17,922 bases of DNA, from the IMG/VR virus record IMGVR_UViG_2526164632_000023, one strand, 5' to 3'. The position numbers and the translations under genes were made by a program. This document shows positions 1 to 17,385 of this stretch, one piece after another (within the stretch, counting starts at the first letter, position 1; every line of letters begins with the position of its first letter). Below the pieces are notes generated by a model. It saw only the letters and a list, made by a program, of their open reading frames with translations. It did not search any database and was not told where the DNA came from. The stretch comes from a virus (taxonomy: Duplodnaviria > Heunggongvirae > Uroviricota > Caudoviricetes).

Positions 1-1227
1 GTGGCTGGCACAAACAAACTGAGTGATAAAAAATTAAGATCGCTTCTCGGCGTAAAGCGGGATTCAGTAATTACCATTGCGGATGGTGAAGGATTAAGCA
101 TCAAAGTATCCATGATGGGATGCATTAGTTGGGTTTTCTCTTATCGTCTTGGTGGGCGTGGGAGCAAGTTAGAGCGCATTGTTCTTGGGCGTTACCCTGA
201 CATGTCGTTGAAAATGGCTAGGGAGAAGAGGGAACTATGCCGAAAATGGTATGCGGACGGGCTGAATCCACGACTTGAATTAGAACTTAGCGCAGAAGAA
301 AACCTTAACCCCGTAACTGTCCATGATGCCCTTGAATATTGGCTAATTCATTACGCAAGAAAAAAACGTAGTGACGAGGAACTGGTGCGGGCGCAATTAC
401 GTAAGCATATTTATCCGCGTCTTGGCCACTATCCGTTATCCCGGTGTGAAACGCGTCACTGGGTGGCATGTTTTGATGAAATTAACCAGTTCAGGCCAAT
501 CACTGCCGGGCGAATGTTCCAGATTTGTAAACAGGCCTTAAGATTCTGCAAGGTTCGCCGTTATGCCTCATGTGATGCCCTGGCTTTTATGACAATCCAG
601 GATGTAGGGCAACCATCGGGGCAGCGTGATAGGGTGCTGTCAGATAGTGAGTTAGCTGATGTATGGCGGTGTACTTATAGCGATGAACAGCAATTTTATT
701 ATCTTCGTCTGCTTAAGTTGCTTGTGCTGTTTGGGGCGCGAACAATGGAAGTAAGATTATCACGGTGGAGTGAATGGGATTTTCAGTCATGGATTTGGAC
801 GGTTCCTAAAGAACACAGCAAAACTCGTGAAAAAATAGTTCGTCCAATTCCAGAGGGCATTCGCCCATGGATTGAGGATCTAAAAAAGGAAACGGGAAAA
901 ACAGGAATTGTACTGGGTGAAGAACGTTCCCGCCAGGCTGCTTCGCTTAAAGGGCGTAGGCTATACAAAGATTTTCATCATAATGAGCCATGGACGCTTC
1001 ACGATTTGCGCAGAACATTTTCTACAGGTTTAAATAATATGGGTATTGCGCCACATATTGTAGAGCTTTTACTTGGTCATGCATTGCCGGGGGTGATGGC
1101 TATTTATAACCGTAGTCTGTACTTACCTGAGAAAATGGATGCGTTGAATAAGTGGTATGGCCGATTAGAACTTCTGGCGGGTAATCATCAAAATGTGGTG
1201 CTGTTACCTGTATCGAATAGAGGTTAA
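1..1227 (+). CDS. int: Tyrosine recombinase / integrase, P4-type (satellite/PICI integrase); 5' end lies at the window edge and may be truncated by a few codons
   Basis: 408-aa ORF. N-terminus LSDKKLRSLL...DGEGLSIKV...WVFSYRLGG matches the P4-type integrase arm-binding domain; C-terminus HDLRRTFSTGLNNMGIAPHIVELLLGHALPGVMAIYNRSLY carries the R/H/R/Y catalytic residues. First gene of the island. Confidence 0.9.
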   Translation: MAGTNKLSDKKLRSLLGVKRDSVITIADGEGLSIKVSMMGCISWVFSYRLGGRGSKLERIVLGRYPDMSLKMAREKRELCRKWYADGLNPRLELELSAEENLNPVTVHDALEYWLIHYARKKRSDEELVRAQLRKHIYPRLGHYPLSRCETRHWVACFDEINQFRPITAGRMFQICKQALRFCKVRRYASCDALAFMTIQDVGQPSGQRDRVLSDSELADVWRCTYSDEQQFYYLRLLKLLVLFGARTMEVRLSRWSEWDFQSWIWTVPKEHSKTREKIVRPIPEGIRPWIEDLKKETGKTGIVLGEERSRQAASLKGRRLYKDFHHNEPWTLHDLRRTFSTGLNNMGIAPHIVELLLGHALPGVMAIYNRSLYLPEKMDALNKWYGRLELLAGNHQNVVLLPVSNRG

Positions 1228-1318
1228 ACTGATATTACGGGCATAGGTCGGCCAACCGAAAAGCGGGAAACCCTACCCGCCTGGCTCGTAAAGTATTTAG
1301 GGCGTTGAGGGTAGCGCA

Positions 1319-1429
1319 ATGGCTAACGACATTAAAATTCCTTTTCAGTATTGCAACATTGAACGTGCATCAAGATTGCTGGGTTGCGAGATTAGCGATC
1401 TCGTGAATTTAGGTGTTACTAAAAAATAG
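1319..1429 (+). CDS. Very small ORF (36 aa) with helix-turn-helix-like segment; may be an N-terminal fragment of the downstream gene
   Basis: ATG 1319 to TAG 1427-1429, MANDIKIPFQYCNIERASRLLGCEISDLVNLGVTKK; ERASRLLGCEISDL resembles an HTH recognition segment. Ends in an A6 run; one extra A would fuse it in frame to the 1471 ORF. Below the ORF-track size cutoff. Confidence 0.2.
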   Translation: MANDIKIPFQYCNIERASRLLGCEISDLVNLGVTKK

Positions 1430-1470
1430 CTTTATGCCTAAATTTATTTGATGCTCGCGCTGTTTTATAT

Positions 1471-2247
1471 ATGAATACTGATAGCGAGTCTGCAACTGCT
1501 TGGTTTGATACCAGAAATGCAAAATCGACCACATCACTGATGGGGAACAATATTACGGAATACTCCAGATTTCATCTTTTCAGATACAATTATAATGAGG
1601 AGACAGATGAAACTATACACGCGCCTTTATTCGGTCAAGACTCAGAAAACGGATGCTTTAGCTCTATTGGTAGGGCTTATGGATTGTGGCGCCTTTGGAG
1701 TGGGCTGGAAGAGCTACAAAATTTTGGAGAGTATTCCCTAAGTGGTTTTGAATTAACCCCGTGTCATCCAGAAACTGATAATCCTGCCGTACAACTTTTA
1801 ATGGTTGGTGAAGATAGTGATTATGATGAAGAAGACGATCAAATATTAAAGAATAATATTTCTATAAATGACTTGTGGATTACCGCTCATGATATAAGGC
1901 GACTTCTTGACTGTGGTGGCGATTATTTTACGCTAACAGATAATTTTGAATCTGTAGAACCTCACAAGATGAATGGCAATGAAATTGTGCACCATTCTGC
2001 TGAAAGACATGCAAGAAATCGAGAGCAAATTTTAATGGTTGCTATGCGTTTTAAAGAAGAGCAACAAAATACTTTTAATGAGACCTGCAGAAAAAACGAT
2101 GGAACGATTAACTATTCTGCTTGGGCTCGTGAGTTGATCGCCAGACCTGATTGGTTCATTAATAGTGAATTGCCAATAAAAACAGAAACAAAAATAGCAG
2201 CAATTTTAAGTAATGCTCATAAGAGGCCGAGTGAAAGATCGCAGTAA
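1471..2247 (+). CDS. Hypothetical protein, AT-rich orphan/accessory gene (no recognisable domain)
   Basis: 258-aa uninterrupted ORF with visibly lower GC than its neighbours, acidic stretch GEDSDYDEEDDQ, no motif I recognise. Sits between int and alpA. Confidence 0.6.
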   Translation: MNTDSESATAWFDTRNAKSTTSLMGNNITEYSRFHLFRYNYNEETDETIHAPLFGQDSENGCFSSIGRAYGLWRLWSGLEELQNFGEYSLSGFELTPCHPETDNPAVQLLMVGEDSDYDEEDDQILKNNISINDLWITAHDIRRLLDCGGDYFTLTDNFESVEPHKMNGNEIVHHSAERHARNREQILMVAMRFKEEQQNTFNETCRKNDGTINYSAWARELIARPDWFINSELPIKTETKIAAILSNAHKRPSERSQ

Positions 2248-2269
2248 GCCTTACTCATATACTCCTAAG

Positions 2270-2302
2270 CATACTGATATATTTATAAGCATTATCAGTA
2301 TG
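2270..2302. repeat. Perfect inverted repeat (10-bp arms CATACTGATA / TATCAGTATG, 13-nt spacer); terminator or operator candidate
   Basis: Read directly: catactgata at 2270-2279, reverse complement tatcagtatg at 2293-2302; 23 bp after the stop of the 1471-2247 ORF and upstream of alpA. Confidence 0.5.
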
Positions 2303-2384: not shown

Positions 2385-2669
2385 ATGACAAAAACCACAT
2401 TCATTCCCCCAACTCCAGAACAACGCCGGGCGCTTCTTGAAGAATACGGTTTTGAATTTGATCGCCGTATCCGTGAAAAGGAATGCCAGGAAATCACCAG
2501 TCTGTCGCGCTCAACTCGCTTCAAAATGGAAAATGAAGGGCGTTTCCCGCCTCGTTGTCATTTCGGGCGCAATAGCTGTGCGTGGCTTCTCTCTGATGTG
2601 CTTTGGTGGGTTCGTAACCCACCTGCTGTAGATAAAGTCAATAATCCGTACGGTAAGAAAGCTGCATAA
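2385..2669 (+). CDS. alpA: AlpA-family phage/island transcriptional regulator (HTH, excisionase-like)
   Basis: ITSLSRSTRFKMENEGRFPPRCHFGRNSCAWLLSDVLWWV matches the AlpA/Xis-type HTH. Start chosen at ATG 2385, 6 nt after a GGAGG Shine-Dalgarno (2376-2380), rather than the ORF-track start at 2343. Confidence 0.75.
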   Translation: MTKTTFIPPTPEQRRALLEEYGFEFDRRIREKECQEITSLSRSTRFKMENEGRFPPRCHFGRNSCAWLLSDVLWWVRNPPAVDKVNNPYGKKAA

Positions 2670-2696
2670 GGGGGGAGTTATGACACATAAAACAAA

Positions 2697-2780: not shown

Positions 2781-2969
2781 TCAGTCAGATTTGGTTCGTT
2801 CCAAGGTTTGCAACGAGAGCTTTTTCCTGTGCTCTTTAAGGAATTGCTCAAGGGCAAAAGCACATGGCGCGAATCTTTCTGATTCATGCTCTATCTTTCT
2901 GCGCCGTCTTTTCCGTGCCGGTGATAATGTTTTGGTCAATTCTTTATCGGTCATTGTGTTGTCCTGCAT
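2781..2969 (-). CDS. Small highly basic hypothetical protein (57-62 aa), downstream of the RHH gene on the minus strand
   Basis: ORF MQDNTMTDKELTKTLSPARKRRRRKIEHESERF...; an alternative start at the second Met (coordinate 2954) has an AGGA upstream. No recognisable family. Confidence 0.3.
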   Translation of the reverse strand: MQDNTMTDKELTKTLSPARKRRRRKIEHESERFAPCAFALEQFLKEHRKKLSLQTLERTKSD

Positions 2970-3011
2970 AGCAATGCGCCGTAGTTACTCACACCACGGC
3001 GCTGGTGATGG

Positions 3012-3190
3012 TTACTCCTGCTCTTTGGCCTTGCGACGCTGGCGGCGTTTGATCTCACCTTTAACGGCAGTAACTATAAATTGCGCCTTGCTTTCACCTT
3101 CATCTAAATTTTTTCTAAGTCTGCAACAACATCATGCGGGAATCTGGCATTTAACTGTTGCGACTTATTATTTGTTGAACCTGTTGCCAT
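3012..3190 (-). pseudogene. Ribbon-helix-helix (CopG/Arc/MetJ-like) DNA-binding protein gene, interrupted by an apparent +1/-1 frameshift in a homopolymer run
   Basis: Minus-strand ATG at 3190 gives MATGSTNNKSQQLNARFPHDVVADLEKI then a stop. The adjacent frame continues DEGESKAQFIVTAVKGEIKRRQRRKAKEQE to a TAA at 3012-3014. Adding one base in the A3/T6 run at 3106-3114 restores a 59-aa product with beta-strand, helix, G-x-S turn and second helix. Confidence 0.5.
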
Positions 3191-3301
3191 TACTGAATCC
3201 TCTCTAAGTTGGTGCGATTCAGTATACACAAAAAAAATTTCAGAGAAAGAGTTGAAGTGCGATTCACTTACTGATGGGTTAAAAACGAATGGTGCGATGC
3301 A
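3191..3301. promoter_or_regulatory. Divergent control region with operator-like repeats between the RHH gene and the rightward early operon
   Basis: Inverted repeat TACTGAATC (3191-3199) / GATTCAGTA (3216-3224); three direct copies of GTGCGAT(T/G)CA at 3212-3221, 3257-3266 and 3292-3301; A8 tract at 3229-3236. Confidence 0.45.
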
Positions 3302-3380
3302 CCAAACAACAACGCCCCGCAGTGGTGGCACACATGCAGGGCGTCTAACCACCAACGATAGCGAAAGTATCGAGGTAGCT

Positions 3381-3584
3381 ATGAGAAATTATACCAGACA
3401 CCCGCAAGGGCGGGACTCGTACAACCTGAATAAATACATCTGGCGTTTTATCGCCCTGAGCACGGCACAACCGCGCGTGATTACCATTGAGGCCACCAGC
3501 GAACAGGAAGCACGCCAGCAATCTCCTGATGACTGCGTGATGGTATTCGCCGCCCGTATTCGTCAGGGGGTGCGCCATGCATGA
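3381..3584 (+). CDS. Hypothetical small protein (67 aa), first gene of rightward early operon
   Basis: ATG 3381 preceded by GAGGTAG; the ORF-track extension back to 3252 uses a TTG inside the operator repeats with no RBS. No family recognised. Confidence 0.35.
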   Translation: MRNYTRHPQGRDSYNLNKYIWRFIALSTAQPRVITIEATSEQEARQQSPDDCVMVFAARIRQGVRHA

Positions 3585-3792
3585 TGACCGTTATTTTAAA
3601 TCAATGAGCCATGCAGAAAACGCACTGACTAACAGTGAATGTTTGAGGCAAATATTTCTTATCTGGCTTGATGGTTTAAGTGATGCGCCGGAAGATGAGC
3701 GTGAGTCTAATCTTGCTGGTGCGTTTATTTCATTACTCGATACGGTAATCGTCGAATTAAATAAAGCGATCGAAATTCACGATAAAAAATAA
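3577..3792 (+). CDS. Hypothetical small protein (71 aa)
   Basis: ORF overlaps the upstream stop (coupled arrangement); no family recognised. Confidence 0.4.
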   Translation: MHDDRYFKSMSHAENALTNSECLRQIFLIWLDGLSDAPEDERESNLAGAFISLLDTVIVELNKAIEIHDKK

Positions 3793-3808
3793 ACGCGGAA
3801 TAAAAACC

Positions 3809-4096
3809 ATGAAACAGAAAATTTCTGGCTTTACTGCCAGCGGCCCCGCTCGGCCTGAAATCCGCCCCGGCGATATTTTCCGGGATAACTATGGCGGCAC
3901 GGTAACGATAAAAGGCGTGGTAGAACGGCACATTACTTACCGCCGTGAAGGTTATGAATATGACTGCGTGATGCCTGTTTATCAGTTCCGGCGTGATTTC
4001 ACGCTGGTGGGCCATCGTAAAGCCGTAAATCAGAAACGTGCAGCAAGTCATATCCGCAAAATTCGTGAAATGCTGGTCGCAGGGGGTAAAAAATGA
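3809..4096 (+). CDS. Hypothetical protein (95 aa), translationally coupled to the replication ATPase
   Basis: Stop overlaps the start of the 4093 ORF (ATGA). Confidence 0.5.
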   Translation: MKQKISGFTASGPARPEIRPGDIFRDNYGGTVTIKGVVERHITYRREGYEYDCVMPVYQFRRDFTLVGHRKAVNQKRAASHIRKIREMLVAGGKK

Positions 4097-5499
4097 AACT
4101 GGCACCGAACGTAAAACTGTTACCGAAAGATAAACACACTGAGGCGGTTATTTTTGCGGGTGATAATGCTCACTCCTTTGCAGAACATTACATGATTGCA
4201 CAGGCCAAAAAAGCAGGCGATCCCATCCCTCCGGTTTACCTGGGCCGTTATCAGTTAAGCGAACTGGACAACCTGCAGATTGTTGATGAGGGGCGATACA
4301 GGGTAACGGTGATACGCGCCGGAAATATTGACGAAGCGCAGCTGTTAACCATAGCGACAAAACTGGCGATCGCCGGAGTCCAGGAAGCGCGGCTGCTTTC
4401 TGAAAACTTCGAATTACTGGAGAAATGGACCGACCAGCTTCCACGGCTACGGGAGACATGGGAGAGAGGGGAAAGCCTGATCATGAACGGAGGAAAACAA
4501 AAAATCACGCTACCGATTTCATGGGGTTCTGAGGGATTCGACGCGCAGCAAAGCTACGTAATTAAGGGGCTTATTCCGGCTGAATCATTATGCAGCACCT
4601 ACGGGGCCAGCGGTTCTTATAAATCGTTCCTGGCTATTTCCTGGTCGTGCCATGTTGCCACAGGTATGGCATGGGGAGGCCGCAGGGTAAGTAAGGGCGC
4701 GGTTATCTATATCGCTGGCGAAGGCAGTATGGGCGTAAAACGCCGCGTTAAGGCGTGGGAGATAACCCACGACAAGGTGGTTACGGATTTGTGCATCGTT
4801 AACGCGCCTGTCTTCCCTGCATCGCCTGACTATGTGGAGCAGGTTATCAGGACTGCCGGACTTGTTAAGAGCAGAACGGGCGAAAATGTGCGGCTGATTG
4901 TGATCGACACGCTGGCCCGTTGCTTTGGTGGGAATGATGAAAATGATTCCCGTGATATGGGCGCATTTATCCAGGGGTGTGACGCGATAAAGCAGGCCAC
5001 AGGGGCCACGGTACTGGTGGTTCACCATTCCGGCAAGGATGAAACAAAGGGGGCGCGAGGTTCCAGCGCATTCCGCGCTGCACTGGATGCAGAGTACCGA
5101 ATCAGCCGGGAAAATTCAGACGTTACAGCACTGGTGGCGGCGTGTACGAAGATGAAAGACGCAGAGGAGCCAAAAGAGAGCGCATACGACCTTAAAAGCG
5201 TGGAGGTGTTTACCGATACCGATGGCGAAGAGATTGTGTCCATGGTGGTGATTGACGTTCCCCGCGCCCCTGCTGAACTGGAGCGCATAGAGGAGGCCGG
5301 GAACAAGACGGAAAATCACACGGCTTTATGGGGTTGTATCCGGTCACGTATACAGCATGGTGATAAATGCACGATCCCGCTGCTACGTGATGACATGAAA
5401 AAGCTGGGATATGACACAAAACACCTTAAACGATGGTTAGCCAAACTGGAAAAAGACGGCGTGATTTGCGTCGATGGGGATGATGTTCACCCACTGTAA
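4093..5499 (+). CDS. Replication initiator / RecA-fold AAA ATPase (RepA-like helicase, AAA_25-type) of the island
   Basis: 468 aa. Walker A GASGSYKSFLAISW, Walker B LIVIDTLARCFGG, VLVVHHSGKDETKGARGSSA motif typical of RepA-like helicases; followed directly by an iteron array. Confidence 0.8.
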   Translation: MKLAPNVKLLPKDKHTEAVIFAGDNAHSFAEHYMIAQAKKAGDPIPPVYLGRYQLSELDNLQIVDEGRYRVTVIRAGNIDEAQLLTIATKLAIAGVQEARLLSENFELLEKWTDQLPRLRETWERGESLIMNGGKQKITLPISWGSEGFDAQQSYVIKGLIPAESLCSTYGASGSYKSFLAISWSCHVATGMAWGGRRVSKGAVIYIAGEGSMGVKRRVKAWEITHDKVVTDLCIVNAPVFPASPDYVEQVIRTAGLVKSRTGENVRLIVIDTLARCFGGNDENDSRDMGAFIQGCDAIKQATGATVLVVHHSGKDETKGARGSSAFRAALDAEYRISRENSDVTALVAACTKMKDAEEPKESAYDLKSVEVFTDTDGEEIVSMVVIDVPRAPAELERIEEAGNKTENHTALWGCIRSRIQHGDKCTIPLLRDDMKKLGYDTKHLKRWLAKLEKDGVICVDGDDVHPL

Positions 5500-5700
5500 A
5501 AAGTGGGCGTTAAAAGTGGGAATAGTGGGTAATTTAACTGGAATTTAACAAAATCGCCCACTTTCCCACGTGTATACATCCCAAAAAGTGGGCACTAAAA
5601 AAATTCTTATGAAACAGCACGATATAAAACCACAAAATCCCAGGTGGGACGAAGTGGGAAACCATGAAAAGTGGGTAGAAAAAGTGGGCACAGGTGGGCG
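5490..5700. repeat. Iteron array (about 10 copies of (A/G)GTGGG, mostly as AAAAGTGGGNA, two inverted), candidate replication origin
   Basis: Read directly: AGTGGG at 5502, 5515, 5524, 5587, 5653, 5670, 5683; GGTGGG at 5643, 5693; inverted CCCACT at 5490 and 5557. Immediately downstream of the rep gene. Confidence 0.6.
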
Positions 5701-5701
5701 C

Positions 5702-5953
5702 ATGACCAGAAAAACCAGAGATAAGACAACACCAAAATATCGCGCATTAGACATGACAGAGCACGCCTTAAAGGTGGCAATCAGAACGATAGACCGCCAC
5801 GCCGGAGAAGGATACGCGAAAGCACATCCCGAACTGATAAGCGCATTCATGATCACGGCGGCGGCAAATTTTGCCACACTGACAGAACGGGAGATTGCCG
5901 AAGCGGAACAGGTGACAACCATCAACGTTAAAACCGGAGAGCAGACAGCATGA
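5702..5953 (+). CDS. Hypothetical protein (83 aa)
   Basis: Start moved to ATG 5702, just past the iterons; the ORF-track N-terminal 44 aa would be translated through the repeat array. Stop overlaps the ssb start (ATGA). Confidence 0.45.
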   Translation: MTRKTRDKTTPKYRALDMTEHALKVAIRTIDRHAGEGYAKAHPELISAFMITAAANFATLTEREIAEAEQVTTINVKTGEQTA

Positions 5954-6375
5954 CAGCACAGATAGCGGCTTACGGGCGGCTGGTGGCTGACCCGCAGCTA
6001 AAGACCACCAGCAAAGGGACACAAATGGCGATGGCGAGTATGGCGGTTCCCCTGCCATGCAGCCAGGCAGATGACGGAACGGCGACGATGTGGTTATCTG
6101 TCCTGGCGTTTGGCAGACAGGCCGACGCACTGGCAAAACACCACAAAGGCGAACTGGTGAGCGTGGCGGGTAACATGCAGGTGAGCCAGTGGACAGGCCA
6201 GAACGGGGAAACGCGGCAGGGCTGGCAGGTTATTGCAGACAGCGTAATCAGTGCGCGAACGGCGCGACCGGGCGGCAAAAAAGGTCAACAGGGCCAGGCC
6301 ACTGACGCACTGAACAGGGCAAAACAACAGACAAGCCAGCACGATGACCCGTACGGGGATAACATACCGTTTTAA
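5950..6375 (+). CDS. ssb: Single-stranded DNA-binding protein
   Basis: 141 aa; OB-fold-like N-terminal region, Gly/Gln-rich linker, acidic C-terminal tail ending DDPYGDNIPF (canonical SSB tail ends DDDIPF). Confidence 0.8.
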   Translation: MTAQIAAYGRLVADPQLKTTSKGTQMAMASMAVPLPCSQADDGTATMWLSVLAFGRQADALAKHHKGELVSVAGNMQVSQWTGQNGETRQGWQVIADSVISARTARPGGKKGQQGQATDALNRAKQQTSQHDDPYGDNIPF

Positions 6376-6411
6376 TTCACAACAGCGAACAGAGTAATTA
6401 CGGGGGAAGGC

Positions 6412-6954
6412 ATGACAACGCTGACCATTAACCGGAAGCCGAAAGGCATTTACGGCACGCCGCAGAAAACGACGCAGGCGGCGCAAGAGCAGGATAAAAC
6501 CACATCGGCGCATAAAGTGATACCCGATAATCAGAACGCACAGCAGAGCCGCAAACAGAAGACCGCAGGGGCGACACCGTGGCAGCATATGACCAAAAGA
6601 CAGCGCAAAAACCGCCGACGCGTTAACCGCCTCACTGAGATGTGGCCTGACTTATTCAGCCATAAAGCACCGAAGCCGCTTAAGGTGGGGATATTCGACG
6701 ACCTGATGCAGGATATCGCCGTCAGGGGGCTGGCATTCGGGTCGGGGGTATTACGTGCGACGCTGGCATCCTATGCGCAGTCTCCGCGCTATTACCGCGC
6801 CCTGATAGCTGGTGGCGCACGTTACGACCTGAAAGGCCAGCCATGTGGGGAAGTGACACCACAGGAACAGCAGGAGGCAGAAACACGGCTGATGGTGCTG
6901 AATGAGAAGCACAAGCGCCAGCGCCGGGCAGCAAAGGGGGATACATGCCAGTGA
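6412..6954 (+). CDS. ProQ/FinO-domain RNA-binding protein
   Basis: Central region PLKVGIFDDL...LRATLASYAQSPRYYRALIAGGARYDLKGQPCGEVTPQEQQEAE aligns by eye with the ProQ/FinO N-terminal domain as I remember it (PLKIGIF.DL ... LRSALRLYT.S.RY ... RVDLDGNPCGEL). Basic N- and C-terminal extensions. GGGGAAGG RBS before ATG 6412. Confidence 0.8.
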   Translation: MTTLTINRKPKGIYGTPQKTTQAAQEQDKTTSAHKVIPDNQNAQQSRKQKTAGATPWQHMTKRQRKNRRRVNRLTEMWPDLFSHKAPKPLKVGIFDDLMQDIAVRGLAFGSGVLRATLASYAQSPRYYRALIAGGARYDLKGQPCGEVTPQEQQEAETRLMVLNEKHKRQRRAAKGDTCQ

Positions 6955-7193
6955 CATTTGAAGAAGTTCAGCAACATAAAAAGCTTCATGGTTTTGATGA
7001 TCTGGAAACCACGACAGCAAAAAAATATCGTCGGTTGCTTTCTTCCGATGCGTTATTTTTTGTGGATCATCATGATTTTCTGCGTAGCTCACTGACCGGG
7101 GAAATTTTCGCAACCAACCGTGAGCAGGTGGAAGCGATGATCGAATATTTGTGGAAAATAAGACGCAGAATGCGGGAGCCAGTGAAACAATAA
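6945..7193 (+). CDS. Hypothetical protein (82 aa), last gene of early operon
   Basis: Start overlaps the previous stop; followed by a terminator hairpin. Confidence 0.5.
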   Translation: MPVTFEEVQQHKKLHGFDDLETTTAKKYRRLLSSDALFFVDHHDFLRSSLTGEIFATNREQVEAMIEYLWKIRRRMREPVKQ

Positions 7194-7202: not shown

Positions 7203-7229
7203 GGCCCGGATTTTTTCCGGGTCTTTTTT
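7203..7229 (+). terminator. Rho-independent terminator after early operon
   Basis: CCCGGA / TCCGGG stem with T-rich loop, followed by a T run (aaggcccggattttttccgggtctttttt). Confidence 0.5.
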
Positions 7230-7264
7230 CAGGTTTTGTAAATTATTTGTTCGTGGTTGTTCCA

Positions 7265-7272
7265 GGTTGTTC
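7265..7272. repeat. Target-site duplication (left copy) GGTTGTTC
   Basis: Identical 8-mer directly abuts both IS ends (7265-7272 and 9976-9983). Confidence 0.8.
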
Positions 7273-7357
7273 GTAAGCGCATCATTTAAACCGTCTTTCG
7301 CCTCCCTTTCCTGTTTCCGATACTAATGTCCATTTTCGCAGTAAAAGGACATTTAAG

Positions 7358-8008: not shown

Positions 8009-8355
8009 TGATATCTCTCCCTGCCGGTTCGCGTATCTGGCTGGTTGCCGGTATCACCGATATGCGAAATGGCTTTAACGGCCTGGCCTCAAAAGTTCAG
8101 AACGTCCTGAAGGATGACCCGTTCTCCGGGCATCTGTTCATCTTCCGCGGACGCCGGGGTGACCAGATAAAAGTGCTGTGGGCTGACAGTGACGGACTGT
8201 GCCTCTTCACCAAACGCCTGGAGCGGGGCCGCTTCGTCTGGCCGGTCACCCGCGATGGAAAGGTTCACCTTACTCCGGCTCAGTTGTCCATGCTTCTCGA
8301 AGGCATCGACTGGAAGCACCCGAAACGAACGGAACGCGCTGGCATCCGCATATAA
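8008..8355 (+). CDS. tnpB: IS66-family accessory protein TnpB (orfB)
   Basis: 115 aa, MISLPAGSRIWLVAGITDMRNGFNGLA...LWADSDGLCLFTKRLERGRF is the conserved IS66 orfB signature. Confidence 0.9.
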   Translation: MISLPAGSRIWLVAGITDMRNGFNGLASKVQNVLKDDPFSGHLFIFRGRRGDQIKVLWADSDGLCLFTKRLERGRFVWPVTRDGKVHLTPAQLSMLLEGIDWKHPKRTERAGIRI

Positions 8356-8374
8356 CCCGTTGTAAAGTGAGGAT

Positions 8375-9945: not shown

Positions 9946-9975
9946 ATATCAATACGGTTCTGGCGAGCCGCTTAC

Positions 9976-9983
9976 GGTTGTTC
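9976..9983. repeat. Target-site duplication (right copy) GGTTGTTC
   Basis: See left copy at 7265-7272. Confidence 0.8.
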
Positions 9984-10177
9984 GGTGATTCTGGCTGATG
10001 TTTACATACTGATTTTTATGTATATGTTGGCGTGTGGCACTCAGACGTGAGCCGCCACAATGCCGCCTGACCCCCTGCGCGATGCCGGGTTGATCTGCGA
10101 GATGCCGAGAGTGTCGGGCGGCGCTCCCCCCGTGTTGGTTTCACGTCCTGAATCTTAACCAATGCGAGAAAACATTC

Positions 10178-11323
10178 ATGAAGAAATTAATCGAACTCCG
10201 CCAGCAAAAAACCGCCCTGAAAAACCAGATGCGATCCCTGCTGGAAAAAGCCGACAATGAAAACCGCAGCCTGAACGATGACGAAGGCAAACAGTTTGAT
10301 GAACTGCGTGCAAAAGCCGATTCCCTCGACACAGAAATTTCCCGCCTCGAGTCTGTGGCTGATGAAGAACGTAACCAGCCTGGTGTTCCCGTCGAAGATA
10401 AAATCACCAAAAATGAGCTACGCTCTTACATTCTGACCGGGGAAACCCGCAACCTGTCCGGCAGTGTTCCGGCTGATGGTGGTTATACGGTTATCCCGGA
10501 ACTGAACAGAGAAATTATGCGTCAGCTTTCTGATGAGTCGGTGATGCGTAAAATCTGTACTGTTAAAACCATTCACAGTAATGAATTTAAGCAACTGGTT
10601 TCTGCCGGGGGTGCGGTCGTGGGACACGGCGAAGAAGGTGCGGCACGTAACCAGACGGCAACCCCAAAACTGAATGAAGTCAGTATCCGCCTGTATCCGA
10701 TCTACGCTTACCCGAAAACCACTCAGGAAATTATCGATTTTTCCGAAGTCGATATTATGGGCTGGTTATCTTCTGAAATTGGCGACACTTTCGTTGATAC
10801 CGAAGAAACGGATCTGGTTTCCGGTGATGGCGAGAAAAAAGCCAAAGGTTTCCTGACTTTCCCGCGCACTACGGATAATGACAAAACCCGTCCTTTCGGT
10901 ACGCTCCAGACGAAAAAAGTGACTGGCAGTCTCAGCGCCGATATGCTGATTGACCTGAAATTTACGCTGCGCAATAAGTACCGCAAAAAAGCTGTATGGG
11001 TGATGAACTCAAATACAGCCGCCTCCGCACAAAAACTGAAAAATGCCACTGGTGATTACATCTGGCGCGATCGTTTACAGGCTGGTGATCCTGATTCTCT
11101 GCTGGGGCTTCCGGTTGAATATCTGGAATTTATGCCGGACGGTGTGATTGCAGTCGGTGACTTTAAGCGCGGTTATTTCATCGTTGACCATAAAACCGGT
11201 ACGCGTACCCGTCCGGATTTCAGCGAGCCTGGATTCATTAACATCTATACCCAGAAATATCTGGGCGGTGGTGTGGTGGATTCGAACGCCATCAAGATTC
11301 TGGAAATTCAGGCTGGCAAGTAA
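10178..11323 (+). CDS. Major capsid protein, HK97 fold, with N-terminal coiled-coil delta/scaffold domain
   Basis: 381 aa; coiled-coil-like N-terminus MKKLIELRQQKTALKNQMRSLLEKA...; GGYTVIPE and LLGLPVEYLEFMP...GDFKRGYFIVDHKTG motifs typical of HK97-family capsid proteins. Confidence 0.85.
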   Translation: MKKLIELRQQKTALKNQMRSLLEKADNENRSLNDDEGKQFDELRAKADSLDTEISRLESVADEERNQPGVPVEDKITKNELRSYILTGETRNLSGSVPADGGYTVIPELNREIMRQLSDESVMRKICTVKTIHSNEFKQLVSAGGAVVGHGEEGAARNQTATPKLNEVSIRLYPIYAYPKTTQEIIDFSEVDIMGWLSSEIGDTFVDTEETDLVSGDGEKKAKGFLTFPRTTDNDKTRPFGTLQTKKVTGSLSADMLIDLKFTLRNKYRKKAVWVMNSNTAASAQKLKNATGDYIWRDRLQAGDPDSLLGLPVEYLEFMPDGVIAVGDFKRGYFIVDHKTGTRTRPDFSEPGFINIYTQKYLGGGVVDSNAIKILEIQAGK

Positions 11324-11372: not shown

Positions 11373-11933
11373 ATGAAAAACACCGATTTTGAAATCCGTA
11401 CATCTGAACTGACCGCCAGCGATAAAAAACTGGTGGGTTATGCCGTTCGCTGGAACAGCCTTTCAGAAATTATCTGGGACGAGTTTCGCGAACAGTTCAC
11501 GCCGGGGGCTTTTGCTGACTATCTGGCGGCGGGTAATGATGTGCGCTGTCTGTATGAGCATGACTATACCCAACTGCTGGGGCGTACCAAATCCGGCTCA
11601 CTGGTACTGACTGAGGATAACACCGGGCTACGTTTTGAACTGACACCGCCAAATACCCAGCTTGGAAAAGATGTGCTTACGCTGGTGGAACGTGGCGATA
11701 TTACAGGAATGAGCTTTGGCTTTCGCGCATTATGCGAGGAGTGGAATATCGCGCAAAAACCGTATCTGCGTACTGTAACCGCCGCAGAACTCCGTGAAAT
11801 CACGATAACATCGATGCCTGCTTATCCCGAATCCGGCGTGGAGATTGCCCACCGTTCGTTGTTTGCACAGTACCCTGAATTACGCCCGGCAGGAAATAAT
11901 CGTCATCGCTGGGCTGAACTGGCGGGGTTGTGA
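11373..11933 (+). CDS. Prohead maturation protease, HK97 family (S78/U35-like)
   Basis: Start at ATG 11373 with GGAG 8 nt upstream. KLVGYAVRWNS...FTPGAFADYL...LYEHDYTQLLGRTKSGSLVLTEDNTGLRFE...GDITGMSFGF matches the HK97 prohead protease family. Confidence 0.85.
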   Translation: MKNTDFEIRTSELTASDKKLVGYAVRWNSLSEIIWDEFREQFTPGAFADYLAAGNDVRCLYEHDYTQLLGRTKSGSLVLTEDNTGLRFELTPPNTQLGKDVLTLVERGDITGMSFGFRALCEEWNIAQKPYLRTVTAAELREITITSMPAYPESGVEIAHRSLFAQYPELRPAGNNRHRWAELAGL

Positions 11934-11934
11934 T

Positions 11935-13149
11935 ATGTGGTGGCCTTTTAGTCGTAAAAAAAGCGATCTGCGTAACCTGTCCATTGATGATTTTCTGGCG
12001 TTGTCTGGTGTACCAAATACCGGATCCGGAGAATATGTTTCTGCCGGGACGGCTGAATCATTGCCTGCTGTGATGAACGCGGTTTCTGTCATCGCTGAGG
12101 CGGTGGCCACGATGCCGTGTTACCTGTATCTGGTACGCAATGATAAGGGCAGAGAGGCGCGGGAATGGCTGGACAGTCACCCGGTAGATATTCTGCTGAA
12201 TGAGCAGCCTAATTCGTGCCTGACACCTTACCAGTTTAAACGCACAATGATGCGTCACTGCCTGCTGAACGGTAACGCCTATGCGGTTATTGAGTGGGGG
12301 CGGGACGGGCAGCCAAAATCACTTCATCCTTATGCGCCGGGGTGTGTTGTACCGGAACGCACAGGCACACACAAATACCGCTATACCATCACCGAACCCT
12401 GTACAGGAACGGTGCGCACGTATTTACAGGAAGAAGTTCTGCATCTCCGCTATGCCTCGGATGATGGCTTTCTGGGGCGTTCCCCCGTCACGATTTGCCG
12501 TGAGGCGCTGGGGCTTGGCCTTGCTCAACAGCGCCACGGAGCCAGCATTATGAAAGATGGCATGATGGCGGCAGGGATTATCACGTCAGGTGAATGGCTG
12601 GACGGCGTGAAAGGTAAACAGGCATTAGACGCACTGGAACGCTACAAGGGGGCGAAAAATGCCGGAAAAACGCCAATCCTTGAAGGGGGCATGGATTACA
12701 GGCAGCTGGGGATGAGTAACCAGGATGCGGAATGGCTGGCCTCCCGTCGCTTCTCCATTGAAGACATCGCCAGGATGTTCAACGTGTCGCCGATTTTTCT
12801 TCAGGAATACAGCAACAGCACCTACAGCAATTTCAGTGAGGCGAGCCGCGCATTTCTGACCATGACAATGCGCCCGTGGCTGGCGAACTTCGAACAGCAA
12901 ATCAAGGCCGCTTTGCTGGTGACTTCTCCCGTACCTGGTACCCGTTATCTGGTTGAGTTTGATTCAGCCGATTTACTGCGCGCCACACCCACCGAACGTT
13001 ATGCCACGTATGAGAAAGGGATTAAGAGCGGGATCATGAATCCGAACGAAGCTCGCGAACGCGAGGGTATGCCGCCGCGTGAAGGTGGTGATGAGTTCAG
13101 CCAGGCATGGAAACAGACTGTGAAAATTAAAGGGAGAAAAGATGAGTGA
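11935..13149 (+). CDS. Portal protein, HK97 family
   Basis: About 404 aa from ATG 11935, immediately after the protease stop; sequence typical of HK97-type portal proteins. Confidence 0.85.
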   Translation: MWWPFSRKKSDLRNLSIDDFLALSGVPNTGSGEYVSAGTAESLPAVMNAVSVIAEAVATMPCYLYLVRNDKGREAREWLDSHPVDILLNEQPNSCLTPYQFKRTMMRHCLLNGNAYAVIEWGRDGQPKSLHPYAPGCVVPERTGTHKYRYTITEPCTGTVRTYLQEEVLHLRYASDDGFLGRSPVTICREALGLGLAQQRHGASIMKDGMMAAGIITSGEWLDGVKGKQALDALERYKGAKNAGKTPILEGGMDYRQLGMSNQDAEWLASRRFSIEDIARMFNVSPIFLQEYSNSTYSNFSEASRAFLTMTMRPWLANFEQQIKAALLVTSPVPGTRYLVEFDSADLLRATPTERYATYEKGIKSGIMNPNEAREREGMPPREGGDEFSQAWKQTVKIKGRKDE

Positions 13150-13444
13150 AGCCAGAATTACACCTGATGAAGTCAGGGCACATCTTCGACTTGATGATGA
13201 TTTATCCGGTGAAGGCGAACTTCTGAAAATGTATACCGATGCGGCGCTGGAAGCCTGCCAGAAGCATATCGGGAAACGTTTTGAAGACGGGCTGGAATTT
13301 ACCCCGGCAATGCGTGTTGGTTGCCTGATGTACATCGCTTTCCTGTACGAGAACAGGGAAGCAGTTTCACCAGTGGAGCAGTCTGAACTGCCTATGGCTA
13401 TTTCTGCGCTCTGGTCGGTTTATCGTGATGTGGGGGTGTACTGA
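13142..13444 (+). CDS. Head-tail connector / gp6-like adaptor protein
   Basis: 100 aa, ITPDEVRAHLRLDDD...GELLKMYTDAALEACQKHIGKRF pattern typical of gp6-like head-tail connector proteins; start overlaps the portal stop. Confidence 0.65.
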   Translation: MSEARITPDEVRAHLRLDDDLSGEGELLKMYTDAALEACQKHIGKRFEDGLEFTPAMRVGCLMYIAFLYENREAVSPVEQSELPMAISALWSVYRDVGVY

Positions 13445-13884
13445 TGCCGTGGCAACCATTAAGGCGATGCACTGAGCCGGGCTGTAATAAGCGCGTGAAG
13501 TCCGGCAAGTGTGAAGAGCACAGACGGGCTGTATGGCGTGCAGAGGATGCCAGACGGGGACACCGCCGCGCGCGCGGGTATTCCCGACAGTGGGACAAAT
13601 ACCGCGCCCTGTACCTGAGCAAAAACCCGTTATGCGTGCGTTGTCTGGCTAAGGGGATTTATACGCCAGCTCTTGTGGTGGATCACATCATCCCCATCAA
13701 TGGCGGCGGTGATGTTCTCTTCTGGCCTGAGTGGAACCACCAGGCATTGTGCCAGACGTGCCACAACCGTAAGACGACACGGGAAGATCCAGCCACGAAA
13801 GCGAACCGTAAGGCGGGCATGTATCGCGAGCAGGAAGAACGGGCAGCACACCGTAACGACTGGATGTATGGCGATGATGACTGA
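13444..13884 (+). CDS. HNH endonuclease (packaging-associated)
   Basis: Cys-rich; CVRCLAKGIYTPALVVDHIIPINGGGD...WNHQALCQTCHNRKT contains an HNH-type D-H...N...H arrangement; sits beside terS/terL as in HNH-dependent cos packaging modules. Confidence 0.8.
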   Translation: MPWQPLRRCTEPGCNKRVKSGKCEEHRRAVWRAEDARRGHRRARGYSRQWDKYRALYLSKNPLCVRCLAKGIYTPALVVDHIIPINGGGDVLFWPEWNHQALCQTCHNRKTTREDPATKANRKAGMYREQEERAAHRNDWMYGDDD

Positions 13885-14053
13885 ACAGGAGCAAACCAGG
13901 CTGATACGTGGACTGATAAGGCAGCGTGACTTATGGAAGACACAGGAGACAGGGCACAAAGCCAACAGGACAGGGCGCACAAAACGCACCACAGCGAAGC
14001 GATTAACCGACCGTGACCGCGAGGTCATGGAATGTTTTCGCAATCGCTGGTGA
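13868..14053 (+). CDS. Small Arg/Thr-rich hypothetical protein (about 61 aa)
   Basis: In-frame ATGs at 13868/13874/13877 overlapping the HNH stop; MAMMTEQEQTRLIRGLIRQRDLWKTQETGHKANRTGRTKRTTAKRLTDRDREVMECFRNRW. Could be spurious. Confidence 0.25.
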   Translation: MAMMTEQEQTRLIRGLIRQRDLWKTQETGHKANRTGRTKRTTAKRLTDRDREVMECFRNRW

Positions 14054-14172
14054 GGCCGTCAGAGGGGGTGGGGGTGGTTTTCAGGACGAAACCGTCCCTG
14101 CCGGACACCGACCGCCTCCTCAAATTTTTGTGCACGGGAATTTTTTTGAAAATAATTGGGCGAAAAAAGAAC
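14054..14172. other. Candidate cos/packaging-initiation region between HNH and terS
   Basis: 119-bp non-coding gap with G-rich block (gagggggtgggggtgg), hairpin ggacg-aaac-cgtcc and T-rich tracts, positioned where cohesive-end sites lie in HNH-dependent HK97-like modules. Confidence 0.3.
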
Positions 14173-14529
14173 ATGGCAAGACCACCAAAAGCCCCCGCTT
14201 ACCTGGATGAAATCGCGGTCAGGCAGTGGAAGGAAAAATCGCGCCAGCTTTCCGGACGGGAAGACCTTACCCCCGCCGACTGGAGCAATCTGGAGCTGTA
14301 TTGTGTTAACTACTCCATATACCGCAAAGCCGTCGAAGACCTTGCCACGCGCGGGTTCAGCATTGTTAACAGTCAGGGCAGCGAGAGCAGAAACCCCGCC
14401 CTGAGCGCAAAGGCTGACGCTGAAAGAATAATGATCAAAATGGCTTCTTTGCTGGGTTTTGACCCGGTAAGTCGCCGCAGAAATCCACCGGAAACAGAGG
14501 AAGAGGACGAGCTTGACCGCCTGGCATGA
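14173..14529 (+). CDS. Terminase small subunit, P27 family
   Basis: Start at ATG 14173 (MARPPKAP...). LTPADWSNLELYCVNYSIYRKAVEDLATRGF...SRNPALSAKADAERIMIKMASLLGFDPVSRRR matches the P27-type TerS pattern. Confidence 0.75.
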   Translation: MARPPKAPAYLDEIAVRQWKEKSRQLSGREDLTPADWSNLELYCVNYSIYRKAVEDLATRGFSIVNSQGSESRNPALSAKADAERIMIKMASLLGFDPVSRRRNPPETEEEDELDRLA

Positions 14530-16174
14530 GTACGCAGAAGGCGTAAAAAACGGCAAAATTACGGCCTGTAAACGACTGAAACAGGCCGTTAAACGGTATT
14601 TTTCTGACCTTGAAAACCCCCTTTACACGTTCGATCCGGAGGTCGTGGAGCGGTTTATTGCCTTTTCCAGGGTGTGTCCGCACGTAAAAGGCGCAATGCG
14701 CGGTAGCCCCATTGAGCTGGAGCCGTGGCAGCAGTTCGCCTTTGCGTGCATCCTGGGCTTTAAGGTTAAGGCCACCGGACGGCGCAAATACACCAGCGCA
14801 TTCATTGAAGTGCCGCGAAAAAATGCCAAATCCACGGTCGCCGCTATCCTGGCTAACTGGTTTCTGGTTATGGAAAACGGGCAGCAGGATATTTACACCG
14901 CCGCCGTGAGTCGTGATCAGGCGCGGATCGTGTTTGATGATGCGCGTCAGATGTGCCTTTTATCCCGACCGTTACGAAAGCGGGTAAATATTCAGGCACA
15001 CAAGGTGATACACCCGAAAACCAACAGCCTGTTAAAGCCACTGGCAGCAAAAGCGGCAACCATTGAAGGTACAAACCCGAGTCTTGCCATTGTGGATGAA
15101 TATCACCTGCACCCTGACAACGGGGTTTATTCCGCGCTTGAACTGGGAATGGGGGCGCGTCCGGAGGGGCTGTTATTTGCCATCACCACATCGGGGAGCA
15201 ACGTTGTTTCAGCCTGTAAACAACACTATGACTATTGCTGCCAGATACTGGATGGTGAAGAGGTGAACGAATCCATGTTCGTGCTGATTTACGAGCTGGA
15301 TGATGAAAGCGAGGTTGACGATCCGGCGATGTGGATAAAGGCGAATCCCAATATCGATGTTTCCGTCGATCGTGAAAAACTGGCCTCAACCATCCAGAAA
15401 GCGCGGGGTATTCCGTCGCAGTGGGTGGAAATGCTCACCAAGCGATTCAATATCTGGTGTCAGGGGGCTACGCCGTGGATGGGTAACGGTGCATGGGCGG
15501 AGTGCGCCGGAACGTTCGCGGAGGCGGATTTATACGGTCAGGAGTGCTACGCGGGGCTGGACTTATCATCAACCAGCGATATTTCCAGCGTGTGCTATGC
15601 CTTTCCGGTCGGTAAAAAGATTATGCTGGTTTCCCGTCACTATCTGCCGGAATTTCAGCTACAGAACCCCGCCAATAAAAACCGCGCCATCTATCGCCAG
15701 TGGGTAAAGGCGGGCTGGATACGCACAACACCGGGTGACTGCATTGATTATGACCGTATCCGTGATGACATCATGGCGGATGCAGAGAATTTCAATATCA
15801 GGCTGGTGGGCTTCGATACATGGAACGCCACGCACCTGAGGACGCAGCTACAGGGGGCAGGATTTGAGGTGGAGCCGTTCCCGCAAACATACCTTCGTTT
15901 CAGTCCGGCGGCGAAATCGTTCGAAGTTTTTGTTAACCGGAAGGTGATTGTGCATCGTGGCGATCCGGTGCTGGCCTGGTCAATGAGTAATGTTGTGATG
16001 CAGAGTGACGCGAACGCCAATATCAAGCCGAACAAGAAAAAATCATCCAACAAGATAGACCCGAGCGTTGCGGCTCTGATGGCTTTTGGCACATTCCAGG
16101 CAGAGCATGAGGAATTTGCATTTGATATGAGCGACAGCCACAAAGAGCGGCTTGCGGCGTTTGATGGGGTATGA
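14513..16174 (+). CDS. Terminase large subunit
   Basis: 553 aa; N-terminal ATPase and C-terminal nuclease regions typical of TerL; overlaps the terS end by 17 nt. Confidence 0.9.
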   Translation: MTAWHEYAEGVKNGKITACKRLKQAVKRYFSDLENPLYTFDPEVVERFIAFSRVCPHVKGAMRGSPIELEPWQQFAFACILGFKVKATGRRKYTSAFIEVPRKNAKSTVAAILANWFLVMENGQQDIYTAAVSRDQARIVFDDARQMCLLSRPLRKRVNIQAHKVIHPKTNSLLKPLAAKAATIEGTNPSLAIVDEYHLHPDNGVYSALELGMGARPEGLLFAITTSGSNVVSACKQHYDYCCQILDGEEVNESMFVLIYELDDESEVDDPAMWIKANPNIDVSVDREKLASTIQKARGIPSQWVEMLTKRFNIWCQGATPWMGNGAWAECAGTFAEADLYGQECYAGLDLSSTSDISSVCYAFPVGKKIMLVSRHYLPEFQLQNPANKNRAIYRQWVKAGWIRTTPGDCIDYDRIRDDIMADAENFNIRLVGFDTWNATHLRTQLQGAGFEVEPFPQTYLRFSPAAKSFEVFVNRKVIVHRGDPVLAWSMSNVVMQSDANANIKPNKKKSSNKIDPSVAALMAFGTFQAEHEEFAFDMSDSHKERLAAFDGV

Positions 16175-16422
16175 CGAGAATGAGCGAAACCGAACTACTA
16201 AAAATAATCCGCCGCGTTACCGGAATCAGCCAGCAGCATGACGAACAGGCCACGCAGCCGGACAGCGTGACCGCCGAAAATTATGTGCGTGTTGTAGCGG
16301 AAGTGATGCGCCGTAATGGTATCCAGCTTAATGATGTGGATATGCGCAACATACGGATCCGCGTTCTGGAAATGCTGGCATACCGTCGCCGCGTGGAGAT
16401 GTATCGGGAGAAGGAAAAATAA
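16171..16422 (+). CDS. Hypothetical protein (83 aa) downstream of terL
   Basis: Start overlaps the terL stop (ATGA); no family recognised. Confidence 0.45.
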   Translation: MTRMSETELLKIIRRVTGISQQHDEQATQPDSVTAENYVRVVAEVMRRNGIQLNDVDMRNIRIRVLEMLAYRRRVEMYREKEK

Positions 16423-16457
16423 CTTACCACTGGAAGAAGCCGGAGCGGTTGCGGCGG

Positions 16458-16650
16458 TAACTGGTTGATATTTTCGAAATTCGCCAGCGGCGAACATCGG
16501 GGAAACCAGCCTAACCCGTTGATATTTTCGGGAACAGCCAACGGCTGAGGCCGGATCAACCGACTATCTTTCAGATAGTCACAAACTACGAAATTTTCAC
16601 AGTTTAATTACTCGCCAGCTTAATCGCTAACTCACTGATATTTTCGGAAA
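16458..16650. repeat. Three direct copies of a ~20-bp unit TAAC(N4)TGATATTTTCG(R)(R)AA, with a fourth partial copy at 16767-16779
   Basis: Exact 11-mer TGATATTTTCG at 16466-16476, 16520-16530 and 16636-16646; 15-mer GCCTAACCCGTTGAT at 16509-16523 and 16765-16779; palindrome GACTATCT-TTC-AGATAGTC at 16562-16580. Confidence 0.6.
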
Positions 16651-16790
16651 CCTCGATTTGAGGAGACCGGAACGTCTACATGGCTGCATCACCATAACGA
16701 TGATTTAGCCCACCAGCAACCATAACGATTTCCGTTACAGTTGATGTGCTTTTTTGCTGGTAAGGCCTAACCCGTTGATTCTTCCACAAT

Positions 16791-16848
16791 CCCCCATTGG
16801 GGGAGGCTGGACGGCCTGCTGTGGGCTTTTCCACCATTGGTGGAAAAG
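16791..16848. repeat. Two palindromes centred on CCA-T-TGG (CCCCCATTGGGGG and CTTTTCCACCATTGGTGGAAAAG)
   Basis: Read directly: 6-bp arms at 16791-16803 and 11-bp arms at 16826-16848, each around a single central T. Confidence 0.5.
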
Positions 16849-17385
16849 TGGCGCGACTACAGGGCTGGATCATCAATATGGTGACGCAGCAACAGAGTGA
16901 CCATTAGTCACCTTGTTCTAACTCGCTGTATTCGTTTAATTTCCACCAACTGCGGAAATTGAGAAACTCACCCGCCAGATTCTGAATGGTGAAAATCACC
17001 GGGGATCTGAATAGGCATTTCCTCTATGGAGGTCGCACCGTTTTCGGGAGAAGGTGCGATCATGTTCGTCATACCGGTTCCGTTGAAATGAAATAGCCTT
17101 GTATGGGCATCATCACCATGCAGGGGATCAAAATCTCTGTAGCTTCATGTTGCCGGGACCGCCAGCCTCGCCAAATTTTTGCGTTTGTGAAAAACGAAAA
17201 TTATTACGTGCTTTGCCCTCTCCTGTTTCTGATGTTGTATACTCGCGGCCTTCTAATTGTGCTGGTGCTTTTTTGAGATTGTGGCGCTGTGTATCGATCC
17301 GTATATCATTCGGTGTATCACTTTTGATAAATTGCTACGTGTGAATTTGTTTTTAACTGACAAAAATCAGTGAGTTATGTGAATT

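Follow-up and report, generated by a model that had tools for sequence, protein, structure and literature searches.

Phage-inducible chromosomal islands that form capsids (cf-PICIs) were published in 2022-2023, and their prototype is EcCIEDL933 from Escherichia coli O157:H7 EDL933 (Alqurainy et al., 10.1101/2022.09.08.507074; He et al., 10.1101/2025.02.11.637232). In experiments, EcCIEDL933 undergoes AlpA-dependent induction, builds its own T=4 capsids, and needs helper tails alone. All packaging genes tested are required for its transfer, and a mutant of the small hypothetical gene 1792 is severely reduced in transfer without losing it. The IMG/VR virus record IMGVR_UViG_2526164632_000023 (Caudoviricetes), a stretch of 17,922 nucleotides analyzed here in full and referred to as the window, very probably holds an E. 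coli cf-PICI of the EcCIEDL933 clade that encodes a P4-type integrase and sits in the first codons of hpt. The life cycle set out below, membership of a sub-lineage without the PF05521 head-completion gene, and an effect of a resident insertion sequence (IS) form part of the same reading. PICIs in hpt were published in 2023, and the island is a further member of these described kinds. It stands apart by its lack of the head-completion gene, its RepA-type replicon and ProQ/FinO gene, its location in hpt, and an IS in a block of conserved non-coding sequence. The stretch should be labelled a phage satellite and not a defective prophage.

Gene content was assigned with Pfam, PHROGs, and NCBIfam and RNA elements with Rfam; the small island genes were also searched with PADLOC. 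Nearly all long open reading frames of the window are co-oriented on the plus strand. The island shares its gene order with EcCIEDL933, from int to a 93-amino-acid gene after terL, and the packaging proteins of the two are 56-93% identical. Both also have a gene-free right end of ~0.9 kb with box-plus-hairpin repeats and a conserved block upstream of the capsid gene. However, there are several differences between the two elements. EcCIEDL933 uses a DUF927 replicase with TAACCCGCA iterons, whereas the island has a RepA-type helicase with RGTGGG iterons; it harbors PerC where the island has ProQ/FinO; and it has the PF05521 gene that the island lacks. EcCIEDL933 lies between roxA and phoQ in the EDL933 chromosome (NZ_CP008957.1) and has an integrase 48% identical to that of the island, which occupies hpt. 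The island has an extra AT-rich gene between int and alpA and, in this copy, an IS66-family insertion. A short “phage” record with ATCC 43895 as its listed host was tried as the source of EcCIEDL933 and turned out not to be from EDL933.

In classical Gram-negative PICIs, of which EcCICFT073 is an example, the left half likewise runs int-alpA-replication, the origin also lies downstream of rep, and a helper induces the element through AlpA. In contrast to the island, which encodes them, they lack portal, connector, HNH, and terL genes and use the capsid proteins of the helper. Phage HK97 and the island have in common an HK97-fold capsid, an S78 protease, a portal, a gp6-like connector, and HNH-assisted cos packaging by the small and large terminase subunits (TerS and TerL). 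Unlike HK97, the island has no tail, lysis, or lysogeny-switch genes, its capsid genes precede hnh-terS-terL, and the capsid of its prototype is small (T=4).

The packaging module lies entirely on the plus strand. It opens with the HK97-type major capsid gene (10178-11323; Pfam E=8e-61), whose product is 74% identical to that of EcCIEDL933, followed by the S78 prohead protease (11373-11933; Pfam E=1e-44; 61%) and the portal (11935-13149; Pfam E=2e-91; 80%). The gp6-like head-tail connector (PF05135; 13142-13444) is 56% identical to the EcCIEDL933 connector, and the HNH endonuclease (13444-13884; Pfam HNH) is 84% identical to its counterpart. A 61-amino-acid gene (13868-14053; phrog_3173) is 78% identical to a small gene at the same place in EcCIEDL933. 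The P27-type TerS (14173-14529; Pfam Terminase_4; 88%) and TerL (14513-16174; Pfam TerL_ATPase and TerL_nuclease; 93%) follow, and the conserved 93-amino-acid gene (16180-16460; phrog_1561; 86%) closes the series. Among solved structures, the capsid protein matches PDB 9gyi at E=5e-185, and the next best matches are Rhodobacter gene-transfer-agent capsids. The 9gyi entry is labelled merely “Major head protein”; it is taken to be the EcCIEDL933 capsid on the basis of its length of 385 amino acids, which equals that of the EcCIEDL933 capsid gene, and of the published cryo-electron microscopy structure of the EcCIEDL933 capsid. All of the packaging genes listed in the original prediction (capsid, protease, portal, connector, HNH, terS, and terL) match the expected families, and the capsid is of HK97 type.

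The intergenic stretch before terS (14054-14172) is a candidate cos region. A 161-bp alignment spanning it (window 14030-14190) is 93% identical to EcCIEDL933, and the linear record of a related element, vB_KppS-Ant, starts and ends in the spacer before terS. These observations weakly suggest that this stretch is a cos site at the usual HK97-type position.

The features of cf-PICIs given by He et al. 2025 and by SatelliteFinder (de Sousa et al. 2023) are, with one difference, those of this locus. From att core to att core, the island spans 17,578 bp, or ~14,867 bp once the IS is subtracted, within the cf-PICI size of ~10-18 kb. The integrase stands at one end (1-1227), alpA and an int-alpA RNA motif make up the regulation module, and a RepA-type AAA_25 helicase with an iteron origin, recognized by Pfam, makes up the replication module. 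The island has its own capsid, protease, and portal as well as HNH, TerS, and TerL, and it has no tail or lysis genes. Its packaging module, at 56-93% identity to EcCIEDL933 by protein, agrees with the 50-90% of the Proteobacterial clade. The difference concerns the two head-tail joining genes, of which PF05135 alone is present; elements in which one or two of the 11 core components are missing still count for SatelliteFinder, under Types B and C (de Sousa et al. 2023). The original prediction of a cf-PICI-like island is thus borne out by the layout, by the lack of tail and lysis genes, and by gene-for-gene collinearity with the characterized EcCIEDL933, the comparison with described cf-PICIs that it had proposed as a check.

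Four complete E. coli genomes, of two named O166:H15 strains and of strains AST240 and AST20, match the window over at least 85% of its length at 99.7-99.9% identity. In these genomes, the island is flanked by gcd to its left and by hpt-can-yadG to its right; gcd and hpt are neighbors in K-12. The tail, lysis, and immunity modules that adjoin the head genes of an ordinary prophage are found neither in the window nor in these flanks. The absence of tail, baseplate, holin, and endolysin genes had been noted beforehand, and no tail, holin, or endolysin family was matched in Pfam or PHROGs. Tail and lysis genes contiguous with the module, which would have pointed to an ordinary prophage, were sought just outside it, where the four genomes have gcd and hpt.

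It is highly improbable that the locus is no satellite and represents an HK97-like prophage in decay, its tail and lysis genes already lost. The head and packaging genes do belong to HK97-type phage families, and degraded copies exist, namely a locus without the capsid gene (L013), one with a portal-terL fusion (L006), and a relative with a stop codon in the portal gene. However, the compact layout recurs with the same ends in many genomes and at several att sites, and the left half is of PICI type, carrying an inward-facing int, alpA, and a rep gene accompanied by its origin. No record in the phage collection reaches 76% nucleotide identity to the packaging module, whose best matches there are small, satellite-like records of 10-17 kb; DNA identities of 65-75% are reached by satellite-sized records alone. 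The connector is at most ~39% identical to any true phage in that collection, and no helper can be named from it. Moreover, the prototype with this layout is a satellite by experiment.

The most distinctive property of the cf-PICI in the window is the reduced head-tail joining region. Between its portal and HNH genes, EcCIEDL933 encodes two proteins for head-tail joining, a PF05521 head-completion protein and a PF05135 gp6-like connector. The island has just the PF05135 gene, whose start overlaps the portal stop and whose end overlaps the HNH start, leaving no space for a PF05521 gene. A tblastn search of the window with the EcCIEDL933 head-completion protein gave no match. The description of the locus as carrying a full capsid and packaging set was therefore overstated: the genes named are present, and one of the prototype's two head-tail joining genes is absent.

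This arrangement is not confined to the window. A 701-nucleotide probe across the portal-connector-HNH junction has a contiguous match in 146 of 5,426 complete E. coli genomes, at 94-99.9% identity, and most other genomes matching the probe carry the extra head-completion gene. Islands with this junction occupy hpt, the tRNA-Ile site beside mug, and fis, and their replication modules are of three kinds, each followed downstream by iterons of its own. The packaging module has thus been joined to three replication modules at at least three att sites. The island differs from the O166:H15 copy by 6 single-nucleotide polymorphisms (SNPs) in ~14.9 kb, whereas the adjacent hpt differs by 5 SNPs in 537 bp; the hpt of the window differs from the K-12 allele at 1 position. 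A near-identical island beside a divergent hpt fits recent horizontal spread. The spread of the junction, the variety of att sites and replication modules, and the SNP pattern fit a mobile, functional sub-lineage, in which the head-completion function must be either dispensable or supplied by the helper.

We tentatively propose that cf-PICIs without the head-completion gene, as found in the 146 genomes, form a functional sub-class that takes both its head-completion protein and its tail from the helper. Tail compatibility is reported to be set by the two head-tail joining proteins, which the published papers name adaptor and connector, and a common sub-lineage does without one of them. If the proposal is correct, the helper and not the island would set the choice of tail and the stability of free DNA-filled capsids. 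Such a life style would differ from that of EcCIEDL933, EcCIGN02175, and KpCIDSM30104, in which piracy is of tails only and tail-less capsids are self-sufficient.

The sub-lineage could instead be a dead-end deletion variant that forms no stable, DNA-filled, tail-competent heads and passes on by vertical descent alone. The three tested cf-PICIs (EcCIEDL933, EcCIGN02175, and KpCIDSM30104) all have both joining genes, the pair sets tail compatibility, and each packaging gene tested in the prototype is needed for transfer. All the same, a dead end is quite unlikely. The junction persists at high identity across the 146 genomes, both complete examples examined (L014 and L015) have intact adjoining genes, the islands occupy different att sites with three replication modules, and the island is nearly identical across lineages with different hpt alleles. 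The spread of the junction, its intact neighbors, the varied sites and replicons, and the contrast with hpt fit ongoing mobility.

Strain OkiPb01701 presents a separate arrangement (L014 13222-20698). Here, a cf-PICI without the head-completion gene is followed within ~500 bp by a 5′-truncated terL and by HK97-like prophage head and tail genes, which could be a tandem integration or a satellite-prophage fusion.

Comparison of the two junctions, attL and attR, with the unoccupied site in K-12 resolved the integration site. The att core TATGAAACATAYTGTAGAAG comprises the start codon and first codons of hpt at both junctions, and the attR core TATGAAACATATTGTAGAAG lies at 17385-17404 on the plus strand. 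The module had been said to run straight into chromosomal hpt; hpt (Pfam) occupies 17386-17922 on the plus strand, and the island ends inside it. The first codons of hpt and a new region upstream of it come from the right end of the island, which changes codon 4 from ACT to ATT. Because the island brings a replacement 5′ end, hpt remains intact. The island starts ~194 bp before window position 1, which places attL outside the window and means that the reported interval is cut at the left. A 36-nucleotide repeat, GTATCGA..GGTGTATCACTTTTG, flanks the att core on both sides in the circular form and is likely to be an arm site of the integrase. One copy of this direct repeat (D2) lies at 17291-17326 on the plus strand; its 36-nucleotide partner, 83% identical, lies just upstream of int, outside the window. 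No tRNA gene was found in the window. The text of Mageeney et al. 2023 (PMC10111431) reports hpt as an integration site of PICIs, with 49 satellites in that survey. These target the same gene as the island, whose att core is the hpt start; the searched text does not describe them as capsid-forming. The cf-PICI paper gives six attB sites.

By homology to EcCIEDL933, the life cycle would proceed in the following order. A helper phage would turn on alpA, and the island would excise and replicate from its RGTGGG iteron origin by means of the RepA-type helicase and a single-stranded DNA-binding protein (SSB). The operon from capsid to terL would then be expressed, with the HK97-fold capsid protein, prohead protease, and portal forming small capsids (T=4 in the prototype). 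HNH, TerS, and TerL would cut the island's own cos and package unit-length DNA of ~14.9 kb. The gp6-like connector would then assemble on the portal, and helper tails and helper lysis functions would complete and release the particles.

In this copy, the control of the packaging operon is probably disturbed. An IS66-family (IS679-like) element of 2,703 bp (7273-9975, plus strand) lies in the 273-bp spacer before the capsid gene, with tnpA, tnpB, and tnpC at 7358-9945 (Pfam HTH_Tnp_1, TnpB_IS66, and DDE_Tnp_IS66). Its ends are GTAAGCG...CGCTTAC, and it is bordered by an 8-bp target duplication, GGTTGTTC, at 7265-7272 and 9976-9983; the empty site is seen in an IS-free relative. The IS66 insertion recognized earlier is thus confirmed by three families, by its borders and target duplication, and by the empty site. 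An insertion at this position is absent from all complete genomes in the collection.

The spacer harbors three elements on the plus strand: a terminator-like hairpin (7203-7229), a conserved 39-nucleotide block with three TTGTTC repeats (7234-7272), and a sigma-70-like promoter candidate (10001-10028), TTTACA-16-TATGTT, which matches the consensus at 9 of 12 positions. The block has one mismatch to EcCIEDL933 (~37870-37910 of its locus), compared with an identity of about one half in the rest of the spacer, and it probably serves to control the packaging operon. The IS sits at the 3′ edge of the block, between it on one side and the promoter-like site and operon on the other, so that the block has been moved 2.7 kb away. 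The position of the insertion and the conservation of the block suggest that operon control is affected. The IS also lengthens the island from 14.9 to 17.6 kb, and packaging may be affected, the largest virion-derived relative being 16.5 kb. Because the block is displaced by 2.7 kb and the island lengthened to 17.6 kb, the regulated production of capsids and packaging would probably be weakened by the IS, whereas no effect on excision and replication is expected.

It is possible, though doubtful, that the IS is neutral and that the same cf-PICI transfers normally, with the operon expressed from its own promoter or by read-through from the IS and with a capsid that holds 17.6 kb. The promoter-like site between the IS and the capsid gene, the co-orientation of the IS with the operon, the intact packaging genes of the window, the 16.5-kb virion-derived relative, and a published cf-PICI size range that extends to 18 kb all favor such neutrality. 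However, the insertion falls exactly at the edge of the sole strongly conserved block in the spacer, and the island exceeds its IS-free form by 18% in length and EcCIEDL933 by 14%.

Several points weigh against the reading of the window as a cf-PICI of this sub-lineage impaired by its IS. The flanks were read from relatives, the window's own left flank lying outside it, and cos is a candidate site. The three tested cf-PICIs have both joining genes. The role proposed for the TTGTTC block derives from its conservation, the promoter-like site still stands next to the capsid gene, read-through from the co-oriented IS could keep the operon expressed, and 17.6 kb lies within the cf-PICI search range of 10-18 kb.

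Strain JNE21-003 has an annotated IS679-family copy that differs by 1.4% from that of the window (98.6% identity) and occupies another position in the same island, bordering the origin iterons on their 3′ side (L001 13709-16413). Because the two copies occupy different positions in the same island, the insertions are independent. With IS66-family elements inserted independently into regulatory DNA of one and the same island, the two strains are natural mutants in which the affected elements can be tested. The TTGTTC block before the capsid gene is one of two conserved non-coding elements of these islands; the other is the series of box-plus-hairpin repeats after terL.

Four box-plus-hairpin units lie at 16455-16811, all on the plus strand, in the gene-free right end of ~0.9 kb that follows the 93-amino-acid gene. 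Each consists of an 18-nucleotide box, TAACnnGyTGATatTTyC, followed by a hairpin with a variable stem. The stems differ between units yet stay complementary. The same units occupy the same place in EcCIEDL933 (six copies; L005 44758-45180), in L013 (13510 and 13814), and in L015 (13513 and 13817). Rfam returned no family for the right-end non-coding region, and a permissive threshold gave just a chance-level match. The repeats are unlikely to be arm sites of the integrase, being common to islands with 48%-identical integrases and different att sites.

The replication module comprises a RepA-family replicative helicase (AAA_25; 4093-5499, plus strand; Pfam E=4e-43) and, just downstream of repA, a replication origin formed by a cluster of RGTGGG iterons (5490-5698). 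The window contains 33 RGTGGG sites, 11 of which fall within these 209 bp, and none of 200 shuffles reached 33; the iterons noted at first inspection are thereby confirmed. Despite the different iterons, RepA and the EcCIEDL933 DUF927 replicase share 46% identity over the N-terminal ~122-125 residues. The iteron type follows the type of rep: RGTGGG accompanies RepA, TAACCCGCA accompanies DUF927, and CTGTTCACC accompanies a primase type, each downstream of rep. The stretches compared were window 5499-5700, EcCIEDL933 locus 36170-36541, L014 5471-5682, and L015 5708-5996.

The leftmost gene encodes the P4-type tyrosine integrase (1-1227, plus strand; 408 amino acids), with the Pfam domains Arm-DNA-bind_3, Phage_int_M, and Phage_integrase. 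It is rare, being found at 99.6% identity or more in 9 of the 5,426 complete E. coli genomes. The int-alpA RNA motif (Rfam RF02996; 1236-1302, plus strand) follows, scoring 55.2 bits, above the gathering score of 35.8 (E=3e-9). The AT-rich accessory gene (1319-2247, plus strand) lies between int and alpA, where PICIs often carry accessory genes, and encodes 309 amino acids in relatives. It belongs to a small family confined to Enterobacterales with no annotated domain; a confident structure model had no significant structural neighbor, and no defense family was matched. The alpA gene (2385-2669, plus strand; Pfam Phage_AlpA, E=6e-12) encodes a protein 49% identical to the AlpA of EcCIEDL933. 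In Gram-negative PICIs, AlpA acts as the inducer and activates excision.

Two small, divergently transcribed genes on the minus strand (2781-3190) are a 57-amino-acid hypothetical gene and a YlcI/YnfO-family gene (3012-3190), as identified from the RefSeq annotation of relatives and NCBIfam NF041551. On the plus strand, 3297-4096 holds an Icd-like gene (NCBIfam phage_ICD_like), a 75-amino-acid hypothetical gene (phrog_6196), and a DUF4222 gene (3809-4096; Pfam E=1.5e-23) that is 58% identical to its EcCIEDL933 counterpart. Downstream of the origin, 5702-7193 (plus strand) holds an 83-amino-acid hypothetical gene 86% identical to that of EcCIEDL933, SSB (5950-6375; Pfam SSB; 69% identity to EcCIEDL933), the ProQ/FinO gene (6412-6954; Pfam ProQ), and an 82-amino-acid hypothetical gene; phrog_1231 and phrog_1957 are matched in this segment. 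The remaining small open reading frames belong to phage or satellite families of unknown function in PHROGs and NCBIfam, and PADLOC gave no matches among the small island genes. The integrase, alpA, RepA-like ATPase, ssb, and ProQ/FinO assignments of the original prediction all agree with the expected Pfam families, and its AT-rich gene is the domain-less gene at 1319-2247.

Comparison of the window with two or three near-identical, independent genomes revealed five single-base deletions, each of which shortens a homopolymer run, and these are the sole indels in the alignments. They are A7 to A6 at 1421 in the AT-rich gene, T7 to T6 at 3109 in the YlcI/YnfO gene, A7 to A6 at 3784 in the 75-amino-acid gene, G5 to G4 at 9506 in tnpC of the IS, and A6 to A5 at 16415 in the 93-amino-acid gene. 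Of the ~9 runs of at least 7 bases expected from relatives, 3 are shortened. The frameshifts are probably sequencing errors caused by homopolymer undercalling. Genuine pseudogenization is unlikely, as all five are homopolymer undercalls relative to the independent genomes. The frameshift earlier assigned to a ribbon-helix-helix gene is present (at 3109), but the gene is of the YlcI/YnfO family, the shift is likely a sequencing error, and the gene is probably intact in the organism.

Strain JNE070796 carries a near-identical island with an internal stop in the portal gene (L002 12511, corresponding to window 12219), where the window has C and this strain has A; RefSeq annotates the gene as a pseudogene. 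A capsid-protein scan of the genome collection outside E. coli found one close relative only, a truncated remnant on a contig of Rosenbergiella sp. YN46 (L006 3192-6926). Its capsid is 89% identical to that of the window, and a deletion fuses its portal to the end of terL. This remnant is closer than EcCIEDL933, yet it comes from a different bacterial family. Finally, LR881103.1, entered as “Escherichia phage vB_KppS-Ant” (16,548 bp), has a cf-PICI layout with an integrase, a primase, the capsid-to-terL genes, and both head-tail joining genes, and a 765-amino-acid gene after its terL is annotated as a tape measure.

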